Part shown: piece by piece, positions 12,891 through 63,494 of the stretch
Position numbering within the stretch: position 1 is the stretch's first letter
Layout: each line of letters opens with the position of its first letter
DNA from: Bacteroidia bacterium
Lineage (GTDB): Bacteria > Bacteroidota > Bacteroidia > UKL13-3
DNA: 64,000 nucleotides
NCBI GenBank assembly: GCA_041675505.1
Contig: JBAYTR010000005.1
Location: 53,871-117,870 of the forward strand
Direction of reading: 5' to 3'
Made by a program: the position numbers and the translations under genes
Notes under the pieces: model-generated
Database searches by the model: none
Told to the model about the DNA's origin: nothing
The model's input: only the letters and a program-made list of their open reading frames with translations

Positions 12891-12953
12891 GTTGCAATTG
12901 CAACCTTTTGTGCGTAATTTTATCATGTATTAAGTCTGAAGCTGAATACCTTG

Positions 12954-15900
12954 ATGAAACACGTCTGTTCATTACTTCTGTTTTTTGCATTGAGTTTGTG
13001 CATTTACGCGCAGCCTGTTAATGATAGTTTTGCCCGCGCAGAAGAACTGATTATCCCTCAAAACGGCTACGGTACAGGGCAGTTTATTTCCAATAAAGTT
13101 CCGCTGGCAAACATTACCAAAGAACTTGGTGAAGCATTTTCCCCAATGCTGGTGAGTGCCGGTATGGATCGCAAAAGTGCCTGGTTTAAATTTACAGTAA
13201 ACAATACCCGGAGCGTAACCATTGATTTATTGCAAAAAGATACCATGGTCCCTCAAAATGCGGCCGGTTTAGCAATATATGAACGGGTAGTTGGTACGCC
13301 CAACATAGGTAACTTAAGCACTAAGCTTACGCCCATCAATAAATTCGGAAGCACATCTAACCTCTGCTTATCTCGGGGAGAATATTATATTCAACTTTGT
13401 GCCAGACATTATGCCACTGATACAGCTTGGATTAAAATAACTGTAAACATGCCGGGTTCACCCGACTATGACCAGATGAATACTGCAATGGATATGGGCT
13501 CCATAAGCGGGTATCGCACTACTTCATTGCAAGTTGGTTGTTTAAGTATAACCAACGAGAAAGAGTTTTTGCCATTAATTGGCAGTGATTATAAGGATTA
13601 TTCGAAGACAGCCTGGTTGATGGTGAAAACGGATAATTACACTGAAGCTTTCTCTATGTCCATGCGTGCTGCAGGTTTAGCTTATTATGGTAAGGACTCT
13701 ACCTTTTGGGGATACAGAATTTATTTTGGAAATATGGTAAATAACCCGACAGGATTAACTTGTATTGATTCAGGGGCAGTATACATAAGGAAGGGTAACT
13801 ACTTTAATAAACAAATAGACAGCGTTTGTAAATTATTGCCATACACATATTACACTATTCAGTTAATCTTTCATAAGAATGATGATTATACAATTTCTTT
13901 AGCCTTTCAAGAAGCGGGAAGTCAGCGATCGACTTCGTACCATCCTGCATATATTCCCTCTTCTCACAAGTTGGGGAGTTTGCCTATAGCACAAGGAGTT
14001 ATAACATCAGATTATTTTTCATGCGATGCCTTACTCAAAAATAATCTATGTGGTACAATTTCTCGAGGTTTTGTTGACGACAGTATTTTTACATCGATAT
14101 GGAATCCCGTAGATCAGAAATTTGACAAGATTTTTCAAAAAAACGATTCAATGCATCTCGGTCTGTGGTTTACATTTAAGCTAACACAAGATGGTCTGCT
14201 TGATATACATTCTCAAATTTATAGCTCCTCGGTATACAGAACTGCAAAGTGCATTCAGTTGTTTAAAGGAGATGCATCTATTAACTGCTATCTTTCATTG
14301 ATAGCCACATTAAAAGGTTATGGTGAGAACTTGTGTTTGAAAGCAGGGGAATATAGTGTTTTAGTTGTGGATGGTAAAAATGATGTCTACGGTATTCCTG
14401 GTTATCTTGGTTCTAATGTGATTACAAATTTATATTTTGTTCCTCTGGCAAAAGAAATTACCGCCTTTCATGATGAGCCGAATTTGGCAGATACCTTGGG
14501 TAATCTTTCAATTAAATTGGATGCATCTCCGATAGCAACTTTTGATACCAAGGAGTACAATGCCGGAGGCACAACAGATTCAGCAGTAATCGGAGGAAAG
14601 AATCTGTATGGTAGATTCACATACACTTCGTTTTATTTTGACCGTCCAGAATTGATTCGCATTGGCTTGTTTTCTGGAACAGGGAAAAAGCGTTCACCTG
14701 ATTACTATGTTATGGTCAAAGGGAAAGCAGTAGATATAGAGGATGCCTCCTGTCGTATCCCGTCTAAATACGGAGTTTTTGAATCACCCGGTTCATTCAT
14801 CTCTACCTGTCATTCTCTTGACTCAGGATGGTATACCCTTGTTGCTCAAAGTTCAACAGATTCATGTATTGAGTTTCCAGTTGGTTTCGGATTCAGAATA
14901 TGGCGTATTACACATATCACCACGCCTAACTATAATCAACCTCAAAAGGCACTGCTGGTTAATAGTGGTCAAGCACTTAGCTGGGCACCCAATAGCGGTA
15001 CTCCACAATTTCCAAAGACAAAAGCGATTTATTCAACAGGAGATCATTATTTCAATTGTATCCCAGATACCCCTTTTGCTGTTATACCAGGTTGCCAGCC
15101 ATCTTTAATAAATAACCAGCTGTTGCAAATTAATTATTATGTTTTCCAAATTGCGGAGAATAATACTTCGCTCAAAATCAGGACAAAGGATTATCTCACT
15201 AACTATCAGTCTTTTTTCGTACAATACTATCATTTGTTTAAGGGTAATTGTCTATCTAATTCTACCTTATTCGATGATACATTGAACAACATTTCTGCTT
15301 GTCAAGGTACTGTCACATATTGTGACCTTTCAGCTGGGTGGTACACGTTGGTGGTATATATGCCTAATACCATGGTGCCGCAATTAGCCAATTTTTATTT
15401 TGTGGTTGATAAACAGTATGTATCGACTTTTGATTATGCCTATAATAGTTACGATCTTGGTATGATTCCTCAGAATAATTCTGAAATAAAGTCGGCTCCA
15501 GATTTTTTCAGTTGTCGAACGGGTGCTGATACTAATAATATTGGTATGCATGCAAGTATACAGAGACCAAGCGGGAAGCCTGATTTTGTTCATCAGGATA
15601 ATGCAATCCCCAAAAATATATGGTACACATTTCAGGTTACTGGTACTGGCGATATCACAATAAAACCTTATGCTTATAAATACAATGGTGAGTATAATCC
15701 CTTTTCATATCAGGTATTTGTCTCCGATGATACCACAGGTCTGTCGTTTAATCAGCTAAAATGTGCTTCAGGCATAGACTCTACACTACAGCAAGGTTTA
15801 AAACGGGTAGCGCAAAATGGTGGGGCGATGTCAGACGGCACACCATCTTACATAACTTTTTCTAAAGCAGGGTGTGAAACCAGAAGGTATTATGTTTTGG

Positions 15901-18233
15901 TACAAAATGGAATACCTTTCAGAGATGTTTTTCAAGTGGAGCTGGGAGTTTCGTTCAAAGGCCTCGGATATCCGATTGAAGGAGACTATTGCAGTAATGC
16001 AGTTATACTAAATGCTTCTGCACCATCAACTGTTTCAGCAAAAGCAGTTGTGAATTGCCATACTGTTGGAGAAAGCTTTGGTGAAGACGGTACTAACATG
16101 GGGTGTTTGGGAGATAAAAATCAAGTGAAAACAACCTGGTTCAAATACACTTATCAATCGAACAATAAAGTCGATTTGGTTTTCAGCATAGTTAACCGAT
16201 CGAATTCGCCCTCCTCTATGATAAAGTATAGGGTACTTTATGGAAACTGTAAAAGTATGACCTCGGGTCCTTGTGTGGCAAATGGCACCGCTTCCTTTAA
16301 ACTGGATTGTATGTCGGCAGGAGAGTATTACATTCAAGTGGTTACACCACAAGTGACCGTGGGTGAGATTGAAATTCGTGTAACTGCCACCACTACGGTT
16401 TATCCTGTTTGCAAACCTTTTGACCTGAATAAGCCGTTCTCCTATTTCACACCTTATGGCGGGTGCGTGGATGGTAAAATAAAATTTACTAACTATTCTT
16501 CGCAGGGAGAAAATATTGTATACCGCTGGGATTTTGGTAACGGTACTTATTCTTCGGCATTAACACCTCAAGTGGAGTATACACAGAGATACACGGTCGA
16601 TACTTTTTCCGTGAAGCTGGTAGTTACAGATACAGTTTTACAAAAAGCTGATTCAATAACTATACCCGTATATGTGTATTATAATTCTGTATGGTTGGAA
16701 GCGGGTAGAGATACGGTTGTGAGTTGTGCGCAAGAGCTTATACAGCTCAAGGCTACAACCAATTACCCCTTCTCACAGTTTGAATGGTTTCCGGCAAATA
16801 AATTTAAGAATCCATATGAACAACAGCCTAAAGTAGTGTTGCCGGAAAATTTAGTATTCACTGTAAAGATGATAACGGAGAACTGTAGCCTCACTGATTC
16901 ACTTAAAATGTCTGTTATAGCAGATGATAAAATTGAGGGAGATTCTGTACTCAATTGTTATTCTTCACCTATCGTATTAAAAGGACCCGCAGGCTATTTT
17001 AATTATCAATGGTCAACAGGACAATTTTCTCCATCCATCACCGTAACTAAAACAGGTAAATATGCTGTGCGGATGACTAAGGGTTCCTGCCAGGTCAACG
17101 ACACCATTGAAGTTACCGGCAAAAATCCTCTATTGTTTAATTTGCCTAAGGATACTGTTATTTGTAAGACAGAACAGGTTAAGTTTTCCACTTCGTATAA
17201 AAACGTATTGTGGTCAACAGGAAGTACAGATACATCTATTTTGGTGAACACTTCAGGTAGTTATTGGATCAGAATTAATCACGAGGATTGTGAGATATAC
17301 GATACCATCTCTGTGCAAAAACACGATGTAAATGTATCATTACCCAAGCCGGTTATACTTTGTGAAGGTGCAACGGTTATGCTTCGGCCCGTGACTTCAG
17401 GCTCTCCATTTAGTTACCAATGGTCAACCGGTAGTACTGATTCTGTTTTGCAAGTAAGTCAAGGAGGGGTTTATCGTGTAGAAGTTGCACGCGACAGATG
17501 TAAAGCACAGGATTCCGCAGTAGTGCTTTTGCGCACTATTCCTTCAAGTCAATTGCCCAGCGACACCTTTTATTGTGATGAGCAACAGCTAACACTTAAA
17601 GTACCCGCTGTTTTTGATACGTATCAATGGTCAACCGGAAGTAATGCTCAGTCCATTCAGCCTTCAACTGAAGGTTGGTATTGGATACGTGTAACCAAAA
17701 ACAATTGCTCACGGGTGGATTCAGTAAAGATTGCGCGCTATATAAGTGAGCAATTTAGTTTAGGTTCTGATACTACTTTCTGTGGCGAGTTTGAACTTTA
17801 TCTGGATGGTGGTAATGCGCTTTCATATCAATGGCTTCCTCACGGGGAAACATCCCGAGTGATTTATGCTAATGAATACCGTTCTTTTGTGCTCCTCAGA
17901 AAAGATACACAACAATGTTTAACAGTTGACACCATCAGGATAAGCGAGTTTTGCGACCCTTCTATCTTTGTGCCAAATGCCTTTACGCCAAATGGCAACG
18001 GACTAAATGAGGTGTTTATGCCGGTAATGACGGATGTTGATGAATTTCAGTTGCTCATTTATAACCGCTGGGGCGAGTTGGTGTTTGAATCAACCAGTAT
18101 TGACAAAGGGTGGGATGGCACATTTAACGGTAAACCGGCTCAACAGGATGCTTATGTTTGGATGGTTTTTTTCAAAGGAAAAACATCAGGCAGCCGAAAA
18201 AATATTTCAGGTTCAGTAACCTTGTTGCGTTAA
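12954..18233 (+). CDS. Giant (~1760 aa) T9SS type-B CTD surface protein or adhesin with multiple Ig-like repeats in its C-terminal third
   Basis: Signal peptide 'MKHVCSLLLFFALSLCIYAQ'. Repeated 'Y.WSTGS..' modules. The terminal 'FVPNAFTPNGNGLNEVFMPV..IYNRWGELVFES' sorting domain is paralogous to the tail of ORF 2..2113. Confidence 0.75.
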   Translation: MKHVCSLLLFFALSLCIYAQPVNDSFARAEELIIPQNGYGTGQFISNKVPLANITKELGEAFSPMLVSAGMDRKSAWFKFTVNNTRSVTIDLLQKDTMVPQNAAGLAIYERVVGTPNIGNLSTKLTPINKFGSTSNLCLSRGEYYIQLCARHYATDTAWIKITVNMPGSPDYDQMNTAMDMGSISGYRTTSLQVGCLSITNEKEFLPLIGSDYKDYSKTAWLMVKTDNYTEAFSMSMRAAGLAYYGKDSTFWGYRIYFGNMVNNPTGLTCIDSGAVYIRKGNYFNKQIDSVCKLLPYTYYTIQLIFHKNDDYTISLAFQEAGSQRSTSYHPAYIPSSHKLGSLPIAQGVITSDYFSCDALLKNNLCGTISRGFVDDSIFTSIWNPVDQKFDKIFQKNDSMHLGLWFTFKLTQDGLLDIHSQIYSSSVYRTAKCIQLFKGDASINCYLSLIATLKGYGENLCLKAGEYSVLVVDGKNDVYGIPGYLGSNVITNLYFVPLAKEITAFHDEPNLADTLGNLSIKLDASPIATFDTKEYNAGGTTDSAVIGGKNLYGRFTYTSFYFDRPELIRIGLFSGTGKKRSPDYYVMVKGKAVDIEDASCRIPSKYGVFESPGSFISTCHSLDSGWYTLVAQSSTDSCIEFPVGFGFRIWRITHITTPNYNQPQKALLVNSGQALSWAPNSGTPQFPKTKAIYSTGDHYFNCIPDTPFAVIPGCQPSLINNQLLQINYYVFQIAENNTSLKIRTKDYLTNYQSFFVQYYHLFKGNCLSNSTLFDDTLNNISACQGTVTYCDLSAGWYTLVVYMPNTMVPQLANFYFVVDKQYVSTFDYAYNSYDLGMIPQNNSEIKSAPDFFSCRTGADTNNIGMHASIQRPSGKPDFVHQDNAIPKNIWYTFQVTGTGDITIKPYAYKYNGEYNPFSYQVFVSDDTTGLSFNQLKCASGIDSTLQQGLKRVAQNGGAMSDGTPSYITFSKAGCETRRYYVLVQNGIPFRDVFQVELGVSFKGLGYPIEGDYCSNAVILNASAPSTVSAKAVVNCHTVGESFGEDGTNMGCLGDKNQVKTTWFKYTYQSNNKVDLVFSIVNRSNSPSSMIKYRVLYGNCKSMTSGPCVANGTASFKLDCMSAGEYYIQVVTPQVTVGEIEIRVTATTTVYPVCKPFDLNKPFSYFTPYGGCVDGKIKFTNYSSQGENIVYRWDFGNGTYSSALTPQVEYTQRYTVDTFSVKLVVTDTVLQKADSITIPVYVYYNSVWLEAGRDTVVSCAQELIQLKATTNYPFSQFEWFPANKFKNPYEQQPKVVLPENLVFTVKMITENCSLTDSLKMSVIADDKIEGDSVLNCYSSPIVLKGPAGYFNYQWSTGQFSPSITVTKTGKYAVRMTKGSCQVNDTIEVTGKNPLLFNLPKDTVICKTEQVKFSTSYKNVLWSTGSTDTSILVNTSGSYWIRINHEDCEIYDTISVQKHDVNVSLPKPVILCEGATVMLRPVTSGSPFSYQWSTGSTDSVLQVSQGGVYRVEVARDRCKAQDSAVVLLRTIPSSQLPSDTFYCDEQQLTLKVPAVFDTYQWSTGSNAQSIQPSTEGWYWIRVTKNNCSRVDSVKIARYISEQFSLGSDTTFCGEFELYLDGGNALSYQWLPHGETSRVIYANEYRSFVLLRKDTQQCLTVDTIRISEFCDPSIFVPNAFTPNGNGLNEVFMPVMTDVDEFQLLIYNRWGELVFESTSIDKGWDGTFNGKPAQQDAYVWMVFFKGKTSGSRKNISGSVTLLR

Positions 18234-21327: not shown

Positions 21328-24015
21328 TTAGTTATCGTAGCCCAGATTAGGTGACAGCCACTTTTCAATGAAAGCCACATCTTTCCCTTTTCTTTGAGCG
21401 TACTCTTCTATTTGGTCTTTGTTTATTTTTCCAACACCAAAATATTTACTTTCAGGATGACCGAAATAAAAACCACTCACGCTGGCTGCGGGGTACATGG
21501 CAAAACTTTCTGTTAACGTAATACCTGCATTTTTTTCTGCCTGCAACAAGTCAAATAACAAACGTTTTTCTGTATGATCAGGACAGGCCGGATAACCCGG
21601 TGCAGGTCTGATGCCACGATAGCTTTCTTTAATTAACTCTTCAGTAGATAAGTGTTCTTCCTTGGCGTATCCCCAATATTCCCTGCGAACCAGTTCATGC
21701 ATTTTTTCTGCAAATGCTTCAGCAAGTCTGTCGGCAATTGCTTTAATCATGATGCTGTGGTAGTCGTCATGGTCTTTCTCGTATTGCTCCACTAACTTCT
21801 CTATGCCTATGCCTGTGGTTACAGCAAATCCGCCCATGTAATCCGTAACCCCTGTTTCTTTGGGAGCTACAAAATCGGCTAAGCAATTGTAGGTTTGTCC
21901 TTCTGCTTTCTCGCTTTGTTGACGTAAGAAATGGAAAGTATGTTTTTCATTGGCTGAAGTGTGGAGTTCAACATCATCTCCTACGGCATTAGAGGGCCAA
22001 AAGGCAATAACGGCTTTAGCCTGAAGAAGATTTTTTGCTATCACCTCATCCAGCATTTTGTTGGCATCGTTAAACAATTTTTGCGCTTCCACACCAACTA
22101 CTTCATCTGTTAGGATTTTCGGGTAACGGCCGGCCAATTCCCAAGTCATGAAGAACGGGGTCCAATCAATATAATCGCGCAATTCACTTAGAGGGAAATT
22201 ATCAAACACCTTCACTCCGGTAAAGCCGGGAGCAACTATATTTTTAACATCAACGTTAATTTTATTTGCACGGGCTTTTTCCAGCGATACAAAGTTTTTT
22301 TCGCGTTTGCGGTTTTTGTAATCTTCTCTGAACTGAGCATACTCTGCTTTTAAGTTGGCCTGAAAAGCAGGTCGGTTTTCTTTGCTGATGAGGCTTTGTG
22401 CTGCGGGTACACTCTTACTTGCATCCAGTACATGCACTACCGGACCACTGTAATTCTGATCAATTTTAACCGCTGTATGAACTCGAGAAGTGGTAGCTCC
22501 GCCAATCAGCAACGGAATATCCATTCCCAGCCGTTCCATTTCTTTAGCTACGTGAACCATCTCATCTAAACTGGGAGTAATTAAACCACTCAGGCCAATT
22601 ACGTCTGCTTTTTCAGCTTTGGCACGTTCCAGTATTTTATCAGCAGGTACCATTACGCCCATATCAACAATTTCAAAGTTGTTACAAGCCAGCACAACGC
22701 CAACAATGTTCTTTCCTATATCGTGCACATCACCTTTTACGGTAGCCAGTAAAATTTTTCCTTGTCCGCCACCTGCTGCTGCTCCGGCTAAACGTTTTTC
22801 TTCTTCCAGGTAAGGTGTTAAATAGGCTACAGATTTTTTCATAACCCGCGCACTTTTTACTACCTGAGGAAGAAACATTTTTCCTTGCCCGAATAAGTCG
22901 CCCACTATGTTCATACCAGCCATCAGCGGACCTTCAATCACATTAAGTGGCTTACCGTATTTTTTTCTGGCTTCTTCAGTATCTTCATCAATGTACTCTA
23001 CAATACCTTTTACCAAGGCATGGCTTAGTCGTTCCTCAATGGTGCCTTTGCGCCATTCCTCATCAATTACTTTTTCTTTGCCTTTACCTTTTACTTTCTC
23101 TGCATACTCCAGTAGTTTTTCTGTGGCATCATCCTTTCTGTCCAGCAAAACATCCTCTACATACTCCAGTAGTTCTTTGTCAATTTCATCGTATACTTCC
23201 AGCTGGCTGGGGTTAACTATGCCCATATCCATACCGTGTTTAATGGCATGGTACAAAAATGCTGAGTGCATGGCTTCACGCACTTTATCGTTACCACGGA
23301 AAGAGAAAGAAACATTCGACACACCTCCGCTTATTTTTGCTCCGGGCAGGTTTTCCTTAATCCATTTGGTTGCTTTGAAAAAGTCAATAGCATTTTGACG
23401 GTGCTCTTCCATTCCGGTGGCTACCGGGAAGATGTTGGGGTCAAAGATGATATCACCTGCGGGGAAGTGAACTTTTTCAGTTAATATTTTGTAAGCACGT
23501 TCAGCAATTTCAATTCTGCGCTGGTAGTTATCGGCCTGGCCAACTTCATCAAACAACATTACAATTACAGCTGCCCCAAAACGTTTTACAATTTTGGCCT
23601 GGCGGACAAATTCTTCTTCTCCGCCTTTCATGGAAATAGAATTCACCACGCATTTACCTTGCACACATTTTAATCCGGCCTCAATAATCTCCCATTTACT
23701 GGAGTCAATCATAACGGGAACACGTGCAATATCGGGCTCAGCCATAACAAGGTGAAGGAAACGGGTCATGGCTTCTGCGCCATCAATCATTCCCTCATCC
23801 ATATTGATGTCTATGATTTGTGCACCGCCCTGCACTTGTTCTCTGGCAACATCAAGCGCTTCATCAAAATTCCCCTCTTTAATCAATCGAAGAAATTTCT
23901 TTGAACCGGTAACGTTGGTGCGTTCTCCCACATTAATGAAATTGGAGCCTTCAAAAATGACTAGAGGTTCGAGTCCTGATAGTTTGAGGGTATAGTTTTG
24001 AGCAGTATTGGTCAT
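21328..24015 (-). CDS. metH: Methionine synthase, C-terminal polypeptide (pterin-binding, B12-cap, B12-binding and AdoMet-activation domains) of a split MetH
   Basis: 'GERTNVTGS' and '[13 protein letters not shown]' mark the pterin domain. '[15 protein letters not shown]' is the DxHxxG B12-binding motif, and an activation domain follows. The start is taken at internal 'MTNTAQNY' to avoid overlap with the upstream receiver gene. Confidence 0.9.
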
Positions 24016-24031
24016 AGAAAAATTGGTGTAA

Positions 24032-24418
24032 TTAAACGTGGTAAACAGCAGAGAGTTTTTCAAAAAGTTCTTCGGGTTTAAACGGCTTGGTGATAACATC
24101 ATTTATGCCGGCCGTCTTAGCATTTTCCTGTGTGTCGGAAGAAGCATCTGCCGTAAGTGCAAAAATGGGAGTGGTGGTATTGAATTTTCGTATTTCAACA
24201 GAGGCTTCAATTCCATTCATTACGGGCATATACATATCCATCAAAATAACATCATAAGTTCCTTCCGTACATTTATCAACGGCTTCTCTGCCGTTTTTTG
24301 CCACATCCGTTATCACCCCCCAGCGCTGCACAAATTTGGTAAGCACCAGTATGTTCATGTTATCATCTTCAGCAATAAGCATACGTAAACCGGTCAGGTC
24401 GTTTTTTACTTCACTCAT
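24032..24418 (-). CDS. Stand-alone response-regulator receiver (CheY-like) domain protein
   Basis: The 128-aa protein has 'LIAEDDNMN', '[14 protein letters not shown]', 'ALTA' and 'KPF', which are all the canonical REC residues. There is no output domain. Confidence 0.85.
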
Positions 24419-25520: not shown

Positions 25521-25632
25521 TGCTCATCTGTATACGAAACAGTAATTTCGTATTAGGAGTTGGCACCCGTCACTTGCCGGGTTGCCAAGACTTCACAGGG
25601 CCTATTCCCTCTGTCTTTCTTGATAAGCGTGG
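25521..25632 (-). promoter_or_regulatory. SAM-I riboswitch in the 5' leader of the split metH operon
   Basis: The reverse complement reads 'CGCUUAUCAAGAAAGACAGAGGGAAUAGGCCCUGUGAAGUCUUGGCAACCCGGCAAGUGACGGGUGCCAACUCC...ACAGAUGAGCAG'. This matches the SAM-I consensus (P1 'CUUAUC'/'GAUGAG', 'AGAGGGA', 'GGCCC', 'GGCAACC', 'GGUGCCAA..CC'). Confidence 0.85.
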
Positions 25633-42231: not shown

Positions 42232-43035
42232 CTATTCGGAAGTTGTTTTTAGTATTTTTTGATAACTAAAACTCCCATCGGCAAGTTGAACCCGAAGGAT
42301 ATACAAACCGGGTACCAGATACCGCAACTCATCAATAATGATTTCAGATTGTATTTCTTTGAAACTACACTTGGTTACCTTGCCATCACTCGCATGAATA
42401 AGTATTAGGGAGTATGGTGCGGTTGGTATTTTTACATGCAATTGGTCATTGAATGGATTGGGGTAAACTTCGACTTTGTTTACAGCAGTTTTTTGTATAC
42501 CGCTTGCAAATTCAAAAAGTGCAATTTCAATAGGAAAGTGCCACTTAAAATATGGGGGGAGTACAATAGAATCGCTCATCCTCATATCATATCGATTACC
42601 AAAATTTGTATTTAAAATATAATCATTGCGCATTTTTGCTTCATGTATAACAAATGGAATAGCTTGTGACCTGAATAAATTGGTGTCCCATCGAACAATA
42701 AAAGGAGGTTTTCCGCCATATGAAAAAACATCTGTAACAACTCCAAAATAATTTGTACGAACCGTATTTGCTTTTACAGGGTCATTGCCATAAAAAGAAT
42801 AGACCTGAAATTTTGCTGTTGCAGATGTATCGACTGAAATAGTTTGTTCGCCTAACAACGTGTCTCTACCTGTTGTGGCAGACGAATCCAAAGCCAGATA
42901 AACTGTATCTCTTTGTCCGCTGGAATCTTCAAACGCTACCCAAAATTTCCATTGAGGTTCCTTTGCAAAAACTGCTGATTGGGCTTGGACAGTAAAAGAA
43001 AATCCCAGCAGCAGAAATATGTATATATGTTTCAT
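42232..43035 (-). CDS. T9SS C-terminal-domain cargo protein (function unknown)
   Basis: Signal peptide plus the C-terminal 'VYPNPFNDQLHV..LYILRVQLADGSFSYQKI' Por-secretion tail. Confidence 0.65.
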   Translation of the reverse strand: MKHIYIFLLLGFSFTVQAQSAVFAKEPQWKFWVAFEDSSGQRDTVYLALDSSATTGRDTLLGEQTISVDTSATAKFQVYSFYGNDPVKANTVRTNYFGVVTDVFSYGGKPPFIVRWDTNLFRSQAIPFVIHEAKMRNDYILNTNFGNRYDMRMSDSIVLPPYFKWHFPIEIALFEFASGIQKTAVNKVEVYPNPFNDQLHVKIPTAPYSLILIHASDGKVTKCSFKEIQSEIIIDELRYLVPGLYILRVQLADGSFSYQKILKTTSE

Positions 43036-43156
43036 TAGCATTTAAGACCTTAGTGCTAATGTAAACAATATTTGATGGGAAAGCCAAAAGAATCTGAATA
43101 CTTTTTTTTTGCACCCGGCTTTTCAGTGGGTTGGAATCAACGTTTTTGTGATTGAG

Positions 43157-53897: not shown

Positions 53898-54356
53898 TTA
53901 CTTCTTATTTAACGTAGACGTATCCGGATTAAAAAGTACCACCCATTTGTTGTCAACAAACTCAACAAAAAATCCAAATCCTTTGTAATAGTTTTTATCG
54001 TATTTGAACCAGGCTTTGATGTTGTAGGTGCCAAAATCACGTGACATCTTTTCGGCTTCTACACTGTAAATTTCTATGTAGTCAATTTTCAGGTTACGGT
54101 TCAAAGCGGTGTCTAAAAACTCCTGTAAGTGATAGAAGTTGTCTTTTATATCTTGCTCAGTAAATGGTCTGTCGTGATAGGGCCACTTGTACTTGCCGGT
54201 ATGCCATAGGCCGATAAAGGATGCACTGTCAGAACTTTTTAAATGTGTTATGGCTTTTTCCAGTAGCAGCCGGGCTTCTTTCTTAGATATTTTTTGCCCG
54301 AATAAAGTTGTGGACAAGCTCAGGCAAATAATGGCGAGTAGTAGTGCTTTTTTCAT
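53898..54356 (-). CDS. Hypothetical secreted protein (AT-rich islet)
   Basis: Signal peptide 'MKKALLLAIICLSLSTTLFGQ'. The start is set by homology of its 5' leader to the next gene's leader. Confidence 0.5.
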   Translation of the reverse strand: MKKALLLAIICLSLSTTLFGQKISKKEARLLLEKAITHLKSSDSASFIGLWHTGKYKWPYHDRPFTEQDIKDNFYHLQEFLDTALNRNLKIDYIEIYSVEAEKMSRDFGTYNIKAWFKYDKNYYKGFGFFVEFVDNKWVVLFNPDTSTLNKK

Positions 54357-54440
54357 TGTACTAAAATACAAAAAGAGAGCGGTTTCAAAGAGTGTTTCAA
54401 TTTTTTCCTATTAGGTTGGTCAGTGCTGACACGGACCAAA
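54357..54440 (-). repeat. Copy A of a duplicated 5' leader/hairpin module: 'tgtactaaaatacaaaaagagag.ggttt...gtttcaatttttt' plus the hairpin 'ttggtcagtgctgacacggaccaa'
   Basis: Aligns with 55213..55345. Confidence 0.6.
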
Positions 54441-54465
54441 GCAGTACTCATAGTGTGTGTGCCTT

Positions 54466-55212
54466 CTAATGCGGTGGTAGAACATCCCAAAAAACTAAAT
54501 TCGGTTTGCACTTCTTAATCTTTTGAATAGTTGGGTAAATACTCATTCGACTCAAATAAAGTTCTTTGTTTTTTATTTTTGAATCAATAATATTGAATTG
54601 ATGAATGTCGCTCAATTTACAAACATCACATTTAATCTCTGTTATTTGTTTGGTCTCGAATGTGAAACTTTGAAGCTTACTTAGTGTCTCTATCCATTGT
54701 GGTATAACCTGCGATTTTCCTCTATAGCCTAAAAAAGTTAAGCCCAAAAAGGCTGAATCAAATTGGGGAAACGTCAAATTTGGCGCAAACAAGTATAAAA
54801 AGTTCAAGCTGTCACTTACGTTAATCAAGTTGATTCTATCCACCTTGTATCCTCCAAAGATTCCAATTGATTGAAGGTTTTCAAATTTGGCCAAATCTAG
54901 ATTGGTCACAGGCTGATTTAAATTGTCAATCCGAATGCTGATAATTTTATTCAGGTCAATATGTAGTGACAATGCTTCGAAATCAATTGGCTTTGTTGAA
55001 TTAATTACCAACTGACTTATATCTTTTGATTTAATTGAATCTGGTATCTCTGAGATATCGCAATTTGTTAGGTATAGAGCATGATATTTCTCTTTATATA
55101 CAACGCAACTATTCTTGCTTGGAATGTCTTTTTTTGTTGTATTGTCACAAGAAGAGACAATTAACAGAATAAGAACTATGCATAAGGAATTAAAAGTACA
55201 TCTTACTTTCAT
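54466..55212 (-). CDS. Leucine-rich-repeat-like lipoprotein
   Basis: Lipobox 'IVSSC'. Repeated 'L..L.L..N.I' segments. Confidence 0.5.
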   Translation of the reverse strand: MKVRCTFNSLCIVLILLIVSSCDNTTKKDIPSKNSCVVYKEKYHALYLTNCDISEIPDSIKSKDISQLVINSTKPIDFEALSLHIDLNKIISIRIDNLNQPVTNLDLAKFENLQSIGIFGGYKVDRINLINVSDSLNFLYLFAPNLTFPQFDSAFLGLTFLGYRGKSQVIPQWIETLSKLQSFTFETKQITEIKCDVCKLSDIHQFNIIDSKIKNKELYLSRMSIYPTIQKIKKCKPNLVFWDVLPPH

Positions 55213-55345
55213 TGTACTAAAATAGAAAAAAAAGAGAGGTTTTATGAGGCTGTTTCAATTTTTATTTTCTAAATCAATCTTTTCTTGTGCTCAACTTTGG
55301 TTCTTGCAAGCATTGGGGCTTTCGGTTGGTTCGTGTAACACGAAC
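55213..55345 (-). repeat. Copy B of the duplicated leader/hairpin module. Contains a perfect 10-bp palindrome 'ttggttcgtg taa cacgaaccaa'
   Basis: Read directly in the sequence. Confidence 0.6.
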
Positions 55346-55442
55346 CAAAGCGGGGTAATTTGATGTAATTTAACTTTTTTGCCACTTTCGTTTGTTAGTG
55401 CTGTCACAAACAAAAGAAAACGGTGAGTGGATATGTGTTATT

Positions 55443-56168
55443 TCAATAAAGTAAGTCTGCACCGTTTTCTTTTAAGGTATCAATTAATCCTTTTACACCT
55501 TGTTTGATGATTTCTTTTTTAGATTCACTTAAAAATTCCTTTATGAACTTTGTTCCTTGTTTTGCAATTTTCGCCCAAATACTTGTCAACTTTGTGACAA
55601 CCCACTTTTTTGATTTATTAGTAATATGGTCACGAAGGACTATAATGTCTTGCTTTATTTCCTTAATGTCTTTTGTGTTATTTTCAGTTTCAAATTCAGA
55701 TAATCTATTCCCTATCGCTTCCAAGTATTTGTCTAATAGTAAAATCTGATTAGTTTTCAATGGCTTTGATTCTGCTTCTTCGTCTATTATTTCAAATTCA
55801 GCGTAAAACTCTTCTTTAAATGACTTTGTTATTGGGTCATCAAAAAAAGAATTTACGCTTTCGTATTCATTTAATAAATTTGACCAAGCTTCAAATTGCC
55901 CTTTCAAACTTGTTACTTCAACCCAAGTTTGATAACTTCCGCTATCATTAATGTTTCGTGGACACTTTGTTATTAAGAATTGAAATATGTTACTGTTAGT
56001 TTTTTGATAATCTTCGATAGTAAAATGAAACTTTGAATCTAAATCTTTATCAATTATCTTAAGTAAATTTTCTTTTGGCTCAATAACTTCAAATTTGTCA
56101 CCTTTTAAATTGACGAAAGGCTCCAATGCTTTCAAAATTACTAATGGTAAGTCCTTTTTCTTTCTCAT
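55443..56168 (-). CDS. Hypothetical cytoplasmic protein (241 aa, AT-rich, orphan)
   Basis: ORF only. Its K/E-rich composition is unlike the flanking core genes. Confidence 0.45.
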   Translation of the reverse strand: MRKKKDLPLVILKALEPFVNLKGDKFEVIEPKENLLKIIDKDLDSKFHFTIEDYQKTNSNIFQFLITKCPRNINDSGSYQTWVEVTSLKGQFEAWSNLLNEYESVNSFFDDPITKSFKEEFYAEFEIIDEEAESKPLKTNQILLLDKYLEAIGNRLSEFETENNTKDIKEIKQDIIVLRDHITNKSKKWVVTKLTSIWAKIAKQGTKFIKEFLSESKKEIIKQGVKGLIDTLKENGADLLY

Positions 56169-57704: not shown

Positions 57705-57869
57705 GTGTGCTTACAGTGGGATAAAATTACTTCTACGGGCTTACAATTGCATCATCAGTTGGCAGGTAAATTTCAACGCGTTAAACAGCAACTGTTTGTA
57801 TTTTTTGTTTGGAGAAAAATAAAACTCTCCCTTTCTTCGCATCCGTTACTCGGTTCTTAGTTCATATAA

Positions 57870-58060
57870 TTTGAACAAAAGATTAATAGGGAATCAGGTG
57901 TAAATCCTGAACAGTTCCCGCTGCTGTAAGTTTCTGCAACGCAAGTTGCAACCTGTTGCCAGCCTTTACGTCACTGTTCACCTTTGGTGGATGGGAAGAC
58001 CGGACAACTGGGGAAATGAGTCAGAAGACCTGCCGCAATAACACAAGTGCATGTAGCTTT
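57870..58060 (+). promoter_or_regulatory. Cobalamin (AdoCbl) riboswitch
   Basis: 'AATAGGGAATCAGGTGTAAATCCTGAACAGTTCCCGCTGCTGTAAG', then 'CACTG..GGGAAG', then the B12 box 'AGTCAGAAGACCTGCC'. It lies about 110 nt upstream of the TonB-dependent receptor. Confidence 0.9.
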
Positions 58061-58171: not shown

Positions 58172-60154
58172 ATGCTGAACGAAAAATACACATGCGACTC
58201 ATTTCAACTCAGGTTACTATTAACCTTACTGAGTGTTGCCTGTGCTGTGTTCCATACCTCAGCACAAACTGATTCCTCCAAACACATACCTGAGGTGACC
58301 ATTACAGCCGTGCGCGGGGAACAGTTGCAAACAGGTGCCAAGGTGCAACAATTTACTCCCGCACAGTTACGTGCATTTGCCACAGCTAACCTGGGCGAAC
58401 TACTTTCAGCCAACACTCCGGTGTTTATTAAAAGTTACGGACCGGGTAGTTTAAGTAGCATTTCTTTTCGGGGTACAGGAGCCTCGCATACCGCAATTGT
58501 GTGGAACGGGTTTAACCTGCAAAGTTCCATGAACGGGCAAACTGATTTGTCCATGTTTCCCATAGGCACCTTTGATGAGGTGAGGTTGCAGTATGGCGGC
58601 AACAGTGCTTTGTACGGAAGTGGTGCAATTGGTGGCAGCATTTATTTGCGCAACACAGCTGCCTTGGTTGATTCACCACAGATGCACTTGGTCTTGCAAG
58701 CCTCTTCGGGAAGCTTTGGTACACAGCAATATTTTGGCAGCTACGGTTATTCAGGCAAAAGGTTTAGTACACAAGTGAAATATTACCGCAATAACTCAGA
58801 TAATAATTATTCTTTTACCAATACCGCAGCTTTTCAATCTCCTGACGTAAAACAAACACATGCGGCCTTTACCCAACAAGGTGTAGTGTTGAATGTCGGT
58901 GGGAGCGTGTCTAAATATACCCGCATCAATGCGTATTACTGGTGGCATAACAACCAACGCGATTTGCCGCCTACTATGTTGCAAAGCACTTCATTGGCTA
59001 CACAAGCGGATGAATCACACCGGGCAGCGATTGATTTTACTTATGGTCGTAACAAATGGCAAAGCATTTTACGCAGCGGATTTTTTCTGGAACAACTTCG
59101 CTACAGCGACCCGATTGCTGGTATTGACAGTAAAAATCGTGCAGTCAATTGGGTGAATGAGTTGGAGCTTTCTTATACCGTTTCACCGATTCTGAAAGTG
59201 ATATCGGGGGTAAACTTTACCACCATCAATGCATCTTCACCCGGCTATTCATCAACTGCTTCTCCTTCCCAAAACAGAACAGCCATTTTCGCAGCTGCCA
59301 GATGGGGGAAGCAAACAGCAGCCTCGCGTTTTAAATCAGACATCTCGGCACGTGCTGAAAATATTTCGGGAGTTTGGGTGCCCGTTACCTTCAGCTTCGG
59401 AACGCAGACAAGGGTAGCTAATAATTTGCACTTTCATACTTTGGTATCACGCAATTACCGTTACCCAACGTTCAATGATTTGTACTGGCAACCCGGTGGC
59501 AATTTACAACTGAAACCGGAGTACAGCTTTAATGCGGAAAGCGGATTGAACTATGTATACACTTTATCAAAGCATCAGTTCAAAGCTAACGTAACGGTGT
59601 TCAGTCATTGGGTTGATAACTGGATTATCTGGATGCCTGATTCCGTTAACCCCAACGTGTGGACTCCCAACAACGCAGCCGAAGTGTGGAGCAGGGGAGT
59701 AGAGTATGGTTTGGGTTATACCTGGCAGCCGAAGTTAAACACAGCTATTTCGGTAAACGCGTTGTATACGTGGCAGCAAGCCACACACGAGAAGGTGGCC
59801 TTTGCAGGAGATGCTGCTTTGCACCGTCAGTTAATTTATATGCCGAGACAAATGGGCTCGTTGCAACTGAGTGTGCAACACAAAAAGTGTCAATTCAGTT
59901 TTCAGCAAGTGTATAACGGTTTGCGTTTTACCAGCAGCGACAATTACAATTACCTGCCAGCATTCTGGTTAAGCAGTGCTCAGCTGTCCTACACCTTTCA
60001 ATTGAAAAAATATCCTGCCTCGGCCCGTGCGTTTGTTTCGGCAAAAAATATGTGGAATGAAAATTACCAGGTGATGTTGTGGCGAGCCATGCCGGGGCGC
60101 TACATAGAAGCAGGTTTACGATTGGAATTACAACATAAAATTAAACATCAATAA
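58172..60154 (+). CDS. btuB: TonB-dependent receptor, probable corrinoid transporter BtuB
   Basis: Signal peptide and plug domain ('VTITAVRGEQL', 'SISFRG'). The C-terminal barrel ends '...RLELQHKIKHQ'. The preceding cobalamin riboswitch supports the BtuB assignment. Confidence 0.75.
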   Translation: MLNEKYTCDSFQLRLLLTLLSVACAVFHTSAQTDSSKHIPEVTITAVRGEQLQTGAKVQQFTPAQLRAFATANLGELLSANTPVFIKSYGPGSLSSISFRGTGASHTAIVWNGFNLQSSMNGQTDLSMFPIGTFDEVRLQYGGNSALYGSGAIGGSIYLRNTAALVDSPQMHLVLQASSGSFGTQQYFGSYGYSGKRFSTQVKYYRNNSDNNYSFTNTAAFQSPDVKQTHAAFTQQGVVLNVGGSVSKYTRINAYYWWHNNQRDLPPTMLQSTSLATQADESHRAAIDFTYGRNKWQSILRSGFFLEQLRYSDPIAGIDSKNRAVNWVNELELSYTVSPILKVISGVNFTTINASSPGYSSTASPSQNRTAIFAAARWGKQTAASRFKSDISARAENISGVWVPVTFSFGTQTRVANNLHFHTLVSRNYRYPTFNDLYWQPGGNLQLKPEYSFNAESGLNYVYTLSKHQFKANVTVFSHWVDNWIIWMPDSVNPNVWTPNNAAEVWSRGVEYGLGYTWQPKLNTAISVNALYTWQQATHEKVAFAGDAALHRQLIYMPRQMGSLQLSVQHKKCQFSFQQVYNGLRFTSSDNYNYLPAFWLSSAQLSYTFQLKKYPASARAFVSAKNMWNENYQVMLWRAMPGRYIEAGLRLELQHKIKHQ

Positions 60155-60156
60155 TC

Positions 60157-61128
60157 ATGAGAAAAACAACTTTACTATTTTTATTCGCTATTCTTTCTGC
60201 GGCAGTTTCTGCTCAAACAGTTGCCAATTTTGAAAATATCACCTTACCTGTCGACAGCTTTTGGGATGGCCGATATGACCAGCAGGCCAAAGGTTTCAGC
60301 AGCGGTAATGCCTTTTTTACCAACATGTGGGATACCTCTTTCGGTGGTTTTTGGGCAGATGGTTTTGCCTGCAGCAATAAAAAAGATACCATCAATGGAA
60401 CCTATACCAATAAGTATTCAGCCATTACTGCCGGTGGCTACAACGCCTCAGCCAACTTTGTTATCGGTCAGCAAAACGCCATAGTGCGTTTAACAGGAAA
60501 CGGAGCAGGTAAAGTAGTGGAAGGTTTTTATGTAACCAACGGAACTTATCCTTACAGCACCATAAAAAACGGAGACAGTTTTTCGAAGAAATTCGGTGGT
60601 GTTACCGGTACTGACCCTGACTTCTTTTTACTGCATGTAGTGGGTTGGCACAACGGTACATTAAAGAACGATACCGTTAAATTTTATCTGGCAGATTTCC
60701 GCTCAACAGACAGCAGCGCTGATTATATCGTAAAAGACTGGCGTTGGGTTAACCTTACTTCACTGGGTAATGTGGATAGCATTAAACTATTTATGACTTC
60801 TTCTGATGTGGGCCAGTGGGGAATTAACACCCCGTTGTTTTACGCCATAGATAATTTTACCACACGCGATATTGCCGCAAGTGTTGCTCCAGTGAAAACC
60901 AACCTTGTTGCTGCGTATCCTAATCCGTTCACTACACAAGTTAGTGTTGCCGTTGAGGTAGCTTCATCTATAGTGCTGTTAGATATCAATGGGAGAGTAG
61001 TATTAAATGAAACCATTTCTGACGCAGGGAAAATCACGTTAAATACCGCTGAAATTGCCGCAGGAATTTACTTTATTCGTGTAAGCAATGTTTACGGACA
61101 AAGCACACAAAAATTAATCAGGTACTAA
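60157..61128 (+). CDS. DUF4465-like (BtuH-like?) protein with a T9SS C-terminal sorting domain
   Basis: The N-terminus 'AQTVANFENITLPVDSFWDG' resembles DUF4465 starts as I recall them. The C-terminal 'AYPNPFTTQVSV...GIYFIRVSNVYGQ' is a type-A T9SS CTD. Confidence 0.5.
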   Translation: MRKTTLLFLFAILSAAVSAQTVANFENITLPVDSFWDGRYDQQAKGFSSGNAFFTNMWDTSFGGFWADGFACSNKKDTINGTYTNKYSAITAGGYNASANFVIGQQNAIVRLTGNGAGKVVEGFYVTNGTYPYSTIKNGDSFSKKFGGVTGTDPDFFLLHVVGWHNGTLKNDTVKFYLADFRSTDSSADYIVKDWRWVNLTSLGNVDSIKLFMTSSDVGQWGINTPLFYAIDNFTTRDIAASVAPVKTNLVAAYPNPFTTQVSVAVEVASSIVLLDINGRVVLNETISDAGKITLNTAEIAAGIYFIRVSNVYGQSTQKLIRY

Positions 61129-62132
61129 TGCGTTTTTACAGTCTGTTTTTTATACTTCTGTTGAGCCTTGGCGGAGCAAATGCACAATTTGCTCCGCAGG
61201 TTGGCAGGCCCGGTTCTACCGCCATTCACAAGGACAATGTGTTGTTTGTGAACTGGGCACAAACCTGCACCGTTAATCGCGGTTACCAGCATGCAGGTAA
61301 TCCGTCTTTGGGTTATCCTACCGTGGGCGATTCGTCTATGGCCGTTGGCAAAGCGGGCACTAACGGAGTGGTGAGTCTGGGAGATGGTGGAAATGCAGTG
61401 CTCACTTTTTATCCTGCTATTAAAAACAAAGCCGGATATGATTTCGCAATTTTCGAAAACGGTTTTCAGTTTATTGCTGATTCAGGTTTGGCGTTTTTGG
61501 AATTTGCTTTTGTAGAAGTGAGTTCAGATGGTCAGTACTTTGTTCGTTTCCCCGCAATAAGTAATATAGATACAAGCGTTCAATGTGACCCTTACGGCAT
61601 CAGCGATGCAGCCAAAGTAGATCAACTGGCCGGTAAGTACGTGTTTCCTTACGGCACCCCGTTTGACTTAGAACTATTGAAAGACACACCGGGTTTAGAT
61701 GTTAACCGCATCACACACATTCGTTTAGTAGATGTGGTGGGCAGTATTGATGCACCCTATGCGCAGCGTGATTCACGCGGAATTATAGTGAATGATCCCT
61801 GGCCCACTGATTTTCCCAACTGTGGTTTTGATGTGGATGCGATAGGAGTGATTAACCAGAACGATCCTAACACTGTGGAGGAAACACTTCAACAGGCACT
61901 TGTTTTATACCCTAATCCTTCTGCAACTCATGCTGCGGTGCGATTACATTTGCCCATGTGGAATATGCCTGCACAGGTAAAAGTCTATGACATCAACGGA
62001 AAAATGGTATTGACCCAACAACTCAACCATGCGGGTGATTACCTCCAAGCTGCTGCATTACCCAAAGGAATATTTTTGGTAGAAGTCGAACAGCAAGGTA
62101 TCACTTACCGCTGCAAATGGATGATTCAATGA
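61128..62132 (+). CDS. Secreted protein of unknown function with a T9SS CTD, in the B12 operon
   Basis: Signal peptide. The C-terminal 'LYPNPSATHAAV...GIFLVEVEQQGITY' is a T9SS CTD. Confidence 0.5.
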   Translation: MRFYSLFFILLLSLGGANAQFAPQVGRPGSTAIHKDNVLFVNWAQTCTVNRGYQHAGNPSLGYPTVGDSSMAVGKAGTNGVVSLGDGGNAVLTFYPAIKNKAGYDFAIFENGFQFIADSGLAFLEFAFVEVSSDGQYFVRFPAISNIDTSVQCDPYGISDAAKVDQLAGKYVFPYGTPFDLELLKDTPGLDVNRITHIRLVDVVGSIDAPYAQRDSRGIIVNDPWPTDFPNCGFDVDAIGVINQNDPNTVEETLQQALVLYPNPSATHAAVRLHLPMWNMPAQVKVYDINGKMVLTQQLNHAGDYLQAAALPKGIFLVEVEQQGITYRCKWMIQ

Positions 62133-63163
62133 GTTCATTTCGTCTGTTGTTTTTGCTTTCAGTTGCACTAACGGTATTTGCCTGTAAAGAAGAAATTCCG
62201 CAAGCACCTGAATTGCCTTCAGCACAAAGTAACCGTTTGGTGTACGTAATTAACGAGGGGAATTTTCAGTGGGGCAATGCTACCATCACCCGCTTTGATC
62301 GCATCAGCAAACAAAAAACGCACGATGATTTTTTTGAAAGTGCCAACCAACGCCCTTTGGGTGATGTGGCACAATCCATCACCTTTCACAACGGATTGGG
62401 GTATCTCGTCATCAATAATTCCTCTAAAATTGAAGTAGTAGATTCCACCACGTTTGTTACCAAAGGTGTCATCAGCGGATTGACTTCACCGCGTTACCTG
62501 TTACCTGTGGGAGGCAATAAAGCCTATGTAACCGATATTTATTCCAACTGCATTTGGGTGGTGAATCTGAATACGCGTACACTCATTAAAACCATTCCTT
62601 GTCGCGGGTGGACGGAAGAGTTGCTTTTGCACAATGGCAAAGTATGGGTTACCAACCTGCGCACCAATTACCTCTATCGCATCAATCCGGTTACAGATAT
62701 TATGGAAGATAGTGTGTTGCTCGGCTTTCCCGCAGGTTCTTTAGTAACGGATGCCGGCAATAAATTGTGGGTATTGTGCAGTCAGGTTTTGCAAGCCAAT
62801 GCGCCTTCCCGTTTGATGCAACTCAACGCACAAGGTACGCAGGTACTCAAAATATTTGATTTGGGCACGGGAGCAGGAAAGGTGTTGCGCACCAACCCCG
62901 ACCGCACGCAGCTCTACTGGATAAAGGGCCACATTTACAGCATGCACATCACTGCTGATTCACTTCCTGTTGCTCCTTTAATAACCAAACAGTCGGGTGA
63001 AAATTTTTACAGTTTAGGAATAGATCCTGTGAGCGGAGAGATTTATGCAGGCGATGCACTCGATTATGTGCAGAAGGGAAACGTGAAATGTTTCACTCCT
63101 GCAGGAGCATTCATCACCTCATTTAAAGCGGGTATCACACCGGGAAATTTTGCATTTAATTAA
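62117..63163 (+). CDS. Beta-propeller (YncE/YVTN-like) surface lipoprotein, a candidate BtuG-like B12-binding protein
   Basis: Lipobox 'LTVFAC'. Repeated 'YV.N.G' blade motifs ('LVYVINEGNF', 'KAYVTDIYSN', 'KVWVTNLRTN'). It overlaps the upstream gene by 16 nt. Confidence 0.5.
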   Translation: MDDSMSSFRLLFLLSVALTVFACKEEIPQAPELPSAQSNRLVYVINEGNFQWGNATITRFDRISKQKTHDDFFESANQRPLGDVAQSITFHNGLGYLVINNSSKIEVVDSTTFVTKGVISGLTSPRYLLPVGGNKAYVTDIYSNCIWVVNLNTRTLIKTIPCRGWTEELLLHNGKVWVTNLRTNYLYRINPVTDIMEDSVLLGFPAGSLVTDAGNKLWVLCSQVLQANAPSRLMQLNAQGTQVLKIFDLGTGAGKVLRTNPDRTQLYWIKGHIYSMHITADSLPVAPLITKQSGENFYSLGIDPVSGEIYAGDALDYVQKGNVKCFTPAGAFITSFKAGITPGNFAFN

Positions 63164-63494
63164 GATGGAACACAAAACCTGTGAACGTTGTGAAGCTGAG
63201 TTTACCTGCAATGTATCGAACATCAGCAATTGCTGGTGCATGGATGTGCAGGTAAATGCTGCGGCTAAAGGAGTGATTGCCGCCAGCTACAACGATTGTT
63301 TATGTGAAAAGTGTTTGAAAGAAATTGCTTTAGAAACGGCCGATAAGCCACTTACCCGGGAAGAATTGAAACCCAACGAACATTATTATTACAACGAAAA
63401 AGGCTTAATGGTGCTCACCGCCACCTACCTGTTACGTAGAGGTTACTGCTGTGAAAACGGCTGCCTGCATTGCCCTTATGGGTTTAGGAAGTAA
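63150..63494 (+). CDS. Cysteine-rich 'CWC'-type small protein (11 Cys in 114 aa)
   Basis: 'CERCEAEFTC...NCWCMD...CLCEKC' plus C-terminal 'GYCCENGCLHCPYGF'. It is translationally coupled to the beta-propeller gene by a 14-nt overlap. Confidence 0.5.
   Translation: MHLIKMEHKTCERCEAEFTCNVSNISNCWCMDVQVNAAAKGVIAASYNDCLCEKCLKEIALETADKPLTREELKPNEHYYYNEKGLMVLTATYLLRRGYCCENGCLHCPYGFRK

Follow-up and report, generated by a model that had tools for sequence, protein, structure and literature searches.

We examined a stretch of 64,000 nucleotides (nt) from a Bacteroidia bacterium (contig JBAYTR010000005.1, positions 53,871 to 117,870 of the forward strand; here, the window), in which two consecutive open reading frames, ORF1 and ORF2, lie between a gene for a BtuB-like transporter and a gene for a BtuG homolog. 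An earlier note on this DNA had proposed that both encode vitamin B12 capture proteins that are routed through a type IX secretion system (T9SS), with C-terminal sorting domains (CTDs) rather than lipoprotein signals. Both reading frames are indeed found at 60157-62132, the interval given there, as part of the following unit.

57834..58052, + strand: cobalamin riboswitch aptamer (RF00174), the operon leader; full-length model match by cmscan, 86.5 bits against a gathering cutoff of 31.5
58172..60154, + strand: BtuB-like TonB-dependent transporter of 660 amino acids (aa), with a Pfam Plug domain and resemblance to B. thetaiotaomicron BtuB structures
60157..61128, + strand: ORF1 (323 aa), BtuJ-like, with a DUF4465 domain and a T9SS type A CTD; signal peptide 1-19 (60157-60213), DUF4465 domain 63-234 (60343-60858), CTD 254-321 (60916-61119)
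61128..62132, + strand: ORF2 (334 aa), with a domain predicted to be BtuH-fold-like and a T9SS type A CTD; signal peptide 1-19 (61128-61184), N-domain about 20-245 (61185-61862), CTD 260-334 (61905-62129)
62117..63163, + strand: BtuG homolog, a beta-propeller surface lipoprotein of 348 aa (Pfam DUF5074); alternative start at 62129
63150..63494, + strand: Cys_rich_CWC and DUF5522 protein, 114 aa, the last gene of the operon; probable ATG at 63165

The genes of this unit are tightly coupled. Only 2 nt separate the TAA of the transporter gene from the ATG of ORF1, the ORF1 stop codon and the ATG of ORF2 share 1 nt (TAATG), and the TGA of ORF2 overlaps the start of the btuG gene; a simple search for terminators turned up none on the + strand within the unit. 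The closest solved relatives of the transporter are BtuB2/BtuB3 of B. thetaiotaomicron (8p98_A, 8bmx_C, and 8p97_A; E about 1e-46). The gene at 62117-63163 has every feature looked for in a BtuG: beta-propeller homology to solved BtuG (8bmx_D at E 1.7e-51 over residues 40-347, with 8bn0 and 3dsm also matching at E about 1e-51), a lipoprotein signal (lipobox LTVFAC followed by KEE, with acidic residues after the Cys), and a btuB gene in the same locus. The protein encoded by the last gene matches Pfam PF14375 (E 3.2e-12) and PF17653 (E 8.6e-19). At the protein level, the window is 95-97% identical to, and shares its gene order with, a contig of a metagenome-assembled genome labeled "Bacteroidia bacterium" (JAGPCK010000023.1). 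The best explanation of the locus is a B12-riboswitch-controlled cobamide uptake operon of an uncultured environmental Bacteroidia bacterium.

Sorting signals of ORF1 and ORF2

Both proteins end in T9SS type A CTDs, as the earlier note had read them. Against TIGR04183 (cutoff, 23 bits) ORF1 scores 44.2 bits and ORF2 39.4 bits (residues 260-334), and against Pfam Por_Secre_tail (PF18962; cutoff, 27 bits) they score 42.3 bits (residues 254-321) and 35.9 bits (residues 260-328), respectively. The missing lipoprotein signals were also read correctly. The signal peptides, which we called by eye from the translations, are cysteine-free, Sec-type (type I), and without a lipobox: MRKTTLLFLFAILSAAVSA with cleavage before QT in ORF1 and MRFYSLFFILLLSLGGANA with cleavage before QF in ORF2. 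Each has a hydrophobic core and an A-x-A cleavage motif followed by Q, and there is no Cys in the first 40 residues of either protein.

In the AlphaFold model of ORF2, the tail forms a beta-sandwich that superposes at 1.2-1.9 A on solved CTDs of T9SS cargo proteins, two of which were captured on the Flavobacterium translocon. With its Sec signal peptide and a C-terminal beta-sandwich of about 75 aa carrying YPNP and GIY motifs, this layout is that of known type A cargo, such as NucA of F. johnsoniae (8GLK), mirolase of T. forsythia (8QB1), and the gingipains of P. gingivalis. The passengers differ: instead of hydrolases, adhesins, or proteases, they are putative micronutrient binders whose genes belong to a transporter operon under riboswitch control. 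Among T9SS cargo, the hemin-binding protein HBP35 of P. gingivalis would come closest in function.

The comparison with gut Bacteroides brings out the change of signal. There, BtuJ, BtuH, BtuK, and BtuG are all lipoproteins, and neither B. thetaiotaomicron nor B. fragilis has porT, a marker gene of the T9SS (PMC5445135). BtuJ1 and BtuJ2 carry a signal peptidase II (SPII) lipobox and an acidic export signal (CSDDDE in BtuJ1), whereas ORF1 has a type I signal peptide, a CTD, and no lipobox; likewise, BtuH is sorted by a lipid anchor and ORF2 by a signal peptidase I signal and a CTD. The gut homologs lack a CTD, as the earlier note had expected. The different delivery route that it envisaged applies to ORF1 and ORF2 as putative accessory binders but not to the whole operon, whose BtuG is still a lipoprotein.

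In literature searches that paired T9SS with B12, cobalamin, BtuG, or secretome, no description of B12 binders delivered by the T9SS came up. The published survey of DUF4465 proteins, in which more than 70% were lipoproteins and the remainder were described as "bearing periplasmic targeting signals" (PMC13398666), does not mention the T9SS, and neither does a 2026 review (PMC13616437). A T9SS route for B12 capture proteins thus appears to be undescribed in print. The swap itself is visible from domain architectures and predictable in a phylum where T9SS display of surface proteins is common.

Domains and families of the two proteins

ORF1 is a clear DUF4465 protein (PF14717, residues 63-234, E 1.9e-43; 149.3 bits against a cutoff of 25), and it matches the solved DUF4465 structures 9hmu (E 1.1e-14), 9fct (BtuJ1; E 8.7e-13), and 9qpm (E 2.9e-12). 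The earlier note had named DUF4465 together with BtuH; the domain call stands, but DUF4465 is the family of BtuJ1/BtuJ2 of B. thetaiotaomicron and not of BtuH (PMC13398666, PMC13616437). As a member of the same domain family as BtuJ1/BtuJ2 (9FCT, 9I2L) and D5EK51 (9HMU), ORF1 is expected to adopt the same augmented jelly-roll. Its DE-loop Tyr is kept (Y131, aligned with BtuJ1 Y146), and so is the NTP at the core of the HI loop, which reads NTPLFY (residues 224-229, window 60826-60843) against NTPSYF in BtuJ1. Like that of BtuJ, its gene belongs to a btuB/btuG locus under cobalamin-riboswitch control, where ORF1 would take the first capture step of a relay. B12 binding has been shown for eight diverse DUF4465 members with identities down to 16%, and a DUF4465 protein of Fluviicola taffensis binds B12 (PMC13398666). 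Judging from its sequence and context, ORF1 likely binds B12 as well.

The N-domain of ORF2 is less straightforward. Mean predicted local distance difference test (pLDDT) scores were 92.1 for the full-length AlphaFold model and 85.4 for the N-domain. In Foldseek searches at E <= 1e-3, the sole match was 8blw_B, the BtuG1/BtuGH chain with a BtuH domain, so the closest solved fold of the predicted N-domain is BtuH's B12-binding domain. When that domain was described, it had "no known structural homologs" (PMC8941943). Sequence searches gave no such link: neither phmmer nor a profile built from 65 sequences of the ORF2 family matched 7BIZ or 8BLW chain B at E <= 10, and neither chain was matched when a lipoprotein variant of the family (P0356) and a 1,352-aa relative from the rumen were searched against all PDB sequences. 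Because the sequence and profile searches give no connection, we call the ORF2 domain BtuH-fold-like and do not class it as a member of the BtuH family; on the predicted structure, it is like BtuH at the level of the fold only. The similarity to BtuH in the earlier note therefore survives as a resemblance of folds, without the sequence or profile link.

Further differences separate ORF2 from BtuH1, BtuH2 (7BIZ), and the BtuH domain of BtuG1/BtuGH (8BLW chain B), with which it shares no detectable sequence homology. The ORF2 domain is smaller (about 225 aa versus about 270 aa), and its family spans environmental Bacteroidota, Verrucomicrobia, and Planctomycetes, far beyond the gut Bacteroidota. 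The conserved B12 and Na/Ca ligands of BtuH2 include N399, F401, E406, Y475, H476, Y510, D522, W577, S582, and E584. The ORF2 family has invariant acidic and aromatic motifs of its own, and its likeness to BtuH is one of predicted fold.

No Pfam family was consistently assigned when 24 trimmed N-domains of the ORF2 family were scanned at E <= 10. All 24 weakly match NCBIfam NF033170, the LIC_13355 lipoprotein family of Leptospira (best E, 1.2e-6), at a family score of 24.6 bits against a cutoff of 120. The shared core of about 45 residues, DFAVFENGF ... LELAFVEVSSDG, corresponds to residues 97-141 of ORF2 (window 61416-61550). LIC_13355 differs in being a spirochete lipoprotein, published only as an adhesin-like surface protein and with no known link to B12. 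The family itself is large, with 2,924 representatives at 50% identity matching at E <= 1e-3 and 1,115 at E <= 1e-30. With the predicted fold and the genomic setting in view, the ORF2 domain probably binds cobamides, and the family is a candidate widespread cobamide-binding domain. This is the less expected part of the finding.

Related loci in other genomes

We surveyed synteny at 41 genome loci and tested 16 ORF2-family loci from three phyla for riboswitches. At least 12 loci share one arrangement, in which BtuB is followed by one or two DUF4465 domains and then by ORF2 and BtuG; variants such as ORF2-BtuB-BtuG also occur. Of the 16 ORF2-family loci, 13 have a cobalamin riboswitch upstream on the same strand; in five loci (L009, L010, L012, L013, and L041) it immediately precedes the ORF2 homolog, which in L012 and L013 is a stand-alone gene. 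The two domains are also joined in single polypeptides of the form DUF4465::ORF2-domain::CTD (P0176 and L016), and in two large genomes stand-alone genes for two DUF4465 domains and a CTD directly follow cobalamin riboswitches (L042, L043).

T9SS sorting prevails in both families. Among the 120 best relatives of ORF1, 116 carry a CTD, none of these 116 has a lipobox, and 104 have a tandem pair of DUF4465 domains before the CTD, where BtuJ1 and BtuJ2 have one domain. Among the 150 best representatives of the ORF2 family, 130 carry a CTD, 3 have the architecture DUF4465::ORF2-domain::PEP-CTERM, and 1 is a true lipoprotein (P0356, with the domain C-terminal). Judged by these sequences, the T9SS-CTD architecture of putative B12 accessory binders is common in databases, not rare.

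The tail of the ORF2 domain follows the phylum: T9SS in Bacteroidota, PEP-CTERM in Verrucomicrobia and Planctomycetes. In a Spartobacteria locus (L039, 6616-8792) and a Gemmataceae locus (L041, 7528-8732), a cobalamin riboswitch precedes ORF2-domain proteins whose PEP-CTERM tails consist of VPEP or TPEP, a hydrophobic stretch, and RRRR. The common thread suggested by these sequences is that ORF2-domain proteins are displayed on the cell surface by whichever sorting system the lineage owns.

The survey also yielded several side observations. In the Spartobacteria locus, the riboswitch is separated from the ORF2 homolog by an additional 323-aa PEP-CTERM protein, which has no Pfam domain. In rumen Bacteroidales (L022-L037; for example, L023, 4848-8906), proteins of 700-1,350 aa that are encoded beside BtuG homologs terminate in an ORF2-type domain and a CTD; no Pfam or PDB sequence match was found for their long N-terminal parts. 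The Cys_rich_CWC and DUF5522 protein, which looks cytoplasmic, is conserved in L001, L003-L005, L008, and L009; it follows btuG as the final gene, its position in L001 and L003-L005, or comes right behind ORF2 homologs. Two apparent CWC::ORF2 fusions with a CTD (P0172, P0185) were set aside; their CWC part lies upstream of the signal-peptide position, and they are most likely merged gene calls of adjacent genes.

A proposed surface relay and its alternatives

We propose that this operon is the "bucket brigade" of surface B12 binders known from B. thetaiotaomicron, with the lipoprotein signal swapped for that of the T9SS, a system that the lineage very likely has. We consider this reading probable; we infer binding, secretion, and anchoring from sequence, structure prediction, and analogy. 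Low intracellular cobamide would lead, through the cobalamin riboswitch, to expression of the operon. ORF1 and ORF2 would then cross the inner membrane via Sec, with signal peptidase I removing their signal peptides, and the CTDs would route them through the T9SS translocon before being removed. The mature proteins would most likely be tethered to the cell surface, where cobamides would be bound by the DUF4465 domain and, probably, by the BtuH-like one and passed on to BtuG, the lid of BtuB, for import powered by TonB. The putative corrinoid-capture role assigned by the earlier note is thus upheld as a prediction, given the riboswitch, the btuB-like and btuG genes, the DUF4465 domain of ORF1, and the BtuH-like predicted fold of ORF2. 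The outcomes that the note named as refuting were not seen: the N-domains resemble corrinoid-binding proteins (ORF1 in sequence, ORF2 in predicted fold), and both C termini pass the CTD models.

Several observations weigh against this proposal, beginning with the missing sequence link between ORF2 and BtuH. The core that the two have in common is a widespread jelly-roll, found also in carbohydrate-binding modules. The transporter scores 101 bits against the NCBIfam TonB-B12 equivalog TIGR01779, which is still its top-scoring family, where the cutoff is 599.7. No T9SS machinery gene is visible within the 64-kb window. Three of the 16 ORF2-family loci lack a detectable riboswitch, and in one of these three (L007, 5389-9535) the ORF2 homolog has behind it another kind of TonB-dependent transporter, of the CarboxypepD_reg type, and a DUF4249 protein. 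Finally, ORF1 has low identity to the solved DUF4465 members, and its F228 takes the place of BtuJ1 Y245, with a Tyr following at 229; the HI-loop Tyr is reported to contact B12 and to be conserved in 97% of DUF4465 proteins (PMC13398666). Among the 120 best ORF1 relatives (P0001-P0120), Phe forms (NTPAFF, NTPLFF, NTPGFF, NTPTFF, NTPLFY) outnumber Tyr forms (NTPAYF, NTPGYF, NTPTYF) by about 2:1, and the HI-loop Phe is, as far as these alignments go, a trait of the CTD-bearing DUF4465 clade.

Whether the binders stay on the cell is the point at which an alternative comes closest. After removal of the CTD, ORF1 and ORF2 could be soluble "corrinophores" that bind cobamides away from the cell and redock on BtuG-BtuB, in the manner of hemophores that carry heme. 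In Flavobacterium johnsoniae, many cargo proteins with a type A CTD are soluble, and the linkers between N-domain and CTD in ORF1 and ORF2 are short and without stalk domains. The earlier note was right that T9SS cargo can be released; it may be anchored, loosely associated, or released, the last notably in gliding bacteria (PMC5445135). Its suggestion that the proteins act at a distance from the cell is speculative. In addition, vesicles already let B. thetaiotaomicron extend capture by BtuJ past the cell itself (PMC13616437). On the other side, the PEP-CTERM tails in other phyla and the lipoprotein signal of P0356 imply that the ORF2 domain is retained on the cell, some relatives (P0107) have Ig-like spacer domains typical of surface display, and a binder of high affinity that diffuses freely would serve as a public good and be costly unless a dedicated step recaptured it. 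The sequence itself has nothing that separates release from retention. Because PEP-CTERM and lipoprotein forms of the ORF2 domain occur, surface retention is favored over free release but not settled, and we regard release as rather doubtful.

A second alternative concerns ORF2. ORF1 could be a cobamide binder while the jelly-roll of ORF2 binds a glycan or another surface component; ORF2 would then serve as tether or scaffold, or would just accompany B12 operons as an unrelated accessory. The spread of this fold among carbohydrate-binding modules suits such a role. The predicted fold nearest to BtuH, the fusions to DUF4465, and the riboswitches directly before stand-alone ORF2 homologs are consistent with a part in cobamide capture, and we think it unlikely that ORF2 is not a binder.

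A bolder claim would join both themes. Environmental Bacteroidota would secrete BtuJ-like and BtuH-like proteins via the T9SS as soluble corrinophores that scavenge cobamides at a distance for BtuG-BtuB, and the unannotated ORF2 family, with its roughly 2,900 clusters at 50% identity from three or more phyla and its relation to Leptospira LIC_13355, would represent an unrecognized, widespread class of cobamide-binding domain that is delivered by the surface-sorting system of each phylum. As a whole, this is speculative, and we hold it to be unlikely.

The weakest alternative bears on secretion, for which other proteins encoded in the window are relevant.

2-2113, + strand: further T9SS cargo candidate, large PKD/Ig-repeat protein with a CHU_C (type B) CTD
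12951-18233, + strand: further T9SS cargo candidate, large PKD/Ig-repeat protein with a CHU_C (type B) CTD
42232-43041, - strand: further T9SS cargo candidate of 269 aa, with a type A CTD just below the Pfam cutoff (26.1 versus 27 bits)

Because the window holds these two CHU_C proteins and the near-threshold type A CTD protein, the source organism very likely has a working T9SS. That the CTDs are nonfunctional remnants or the T9SS is not working, so that ORF1 and ORF2 stay periplasmic as BtuF-like binders, would fit the missing machinery genes and the "periplasmic targeting signals" of the DUF4465 survey; it is highly improbable given that both CTDs, which are kept in hundreds of relatives, score far over the curated cutoffs, that the ORF2 CTD is predicted to fold like translocon-bound CTDs, that three more CTD proteins are encoded in the window, and that the survey says nothing of the T9SS or of sorting domains (PMC13398666).

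The window also encodes a B12-dependent methionine synthase (MetH), split into two genes behind an S-adenosylmethionine (SAM) riboswitch.

25521-25629, - strand: SAM riboswitch (RF00162), 76.9 bits
24443-25462, - strand: MetH part 1, homocysteine S-methyltransferase domain
21328-24102, - strand: MetH part 2, pterin-binding, B12-binding, and activation domains

Because a B12-dependent MetH is encoded here, the organism has a use for imported cobamide. Elsewhere in the window, the GC content dips to 0.337 at 54001-56000, against about 0.42-0.45 in the flanks. The dip spans two minus-strand ORFs with no assigned function (54466-55212 and 55443-56168), and the interval 54001-56000 may be a recently acquired insert.

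Accessory B12 capture has been studied mainly in gut Bacteroides, which lack the T9SS and use lipoproteins and vesicles. The loci described here suggest that the same B12 relay is widespread in Bacteroidota of soil, water, sludge, and the rumen, with binders delivered by the T9SS, and that the binder domains are modular, appearing to move between T9SS CTD, PEP-CTERM, and lipobox. Sorting DUF4465 proteins into "lipoprotein" and "periplasmic" by signal peptide only probably misplaces the members that bear a CTD, and T9SS mutants of environmental Bacteroidota may carry an unnoticed defect in B12 acquisition. The ORF2 family, which has no Pfam entry, offers a concrete new candidate for a cobamide-binding domain; if its domain does bind cobamides, LIC_13355 might bind them too.

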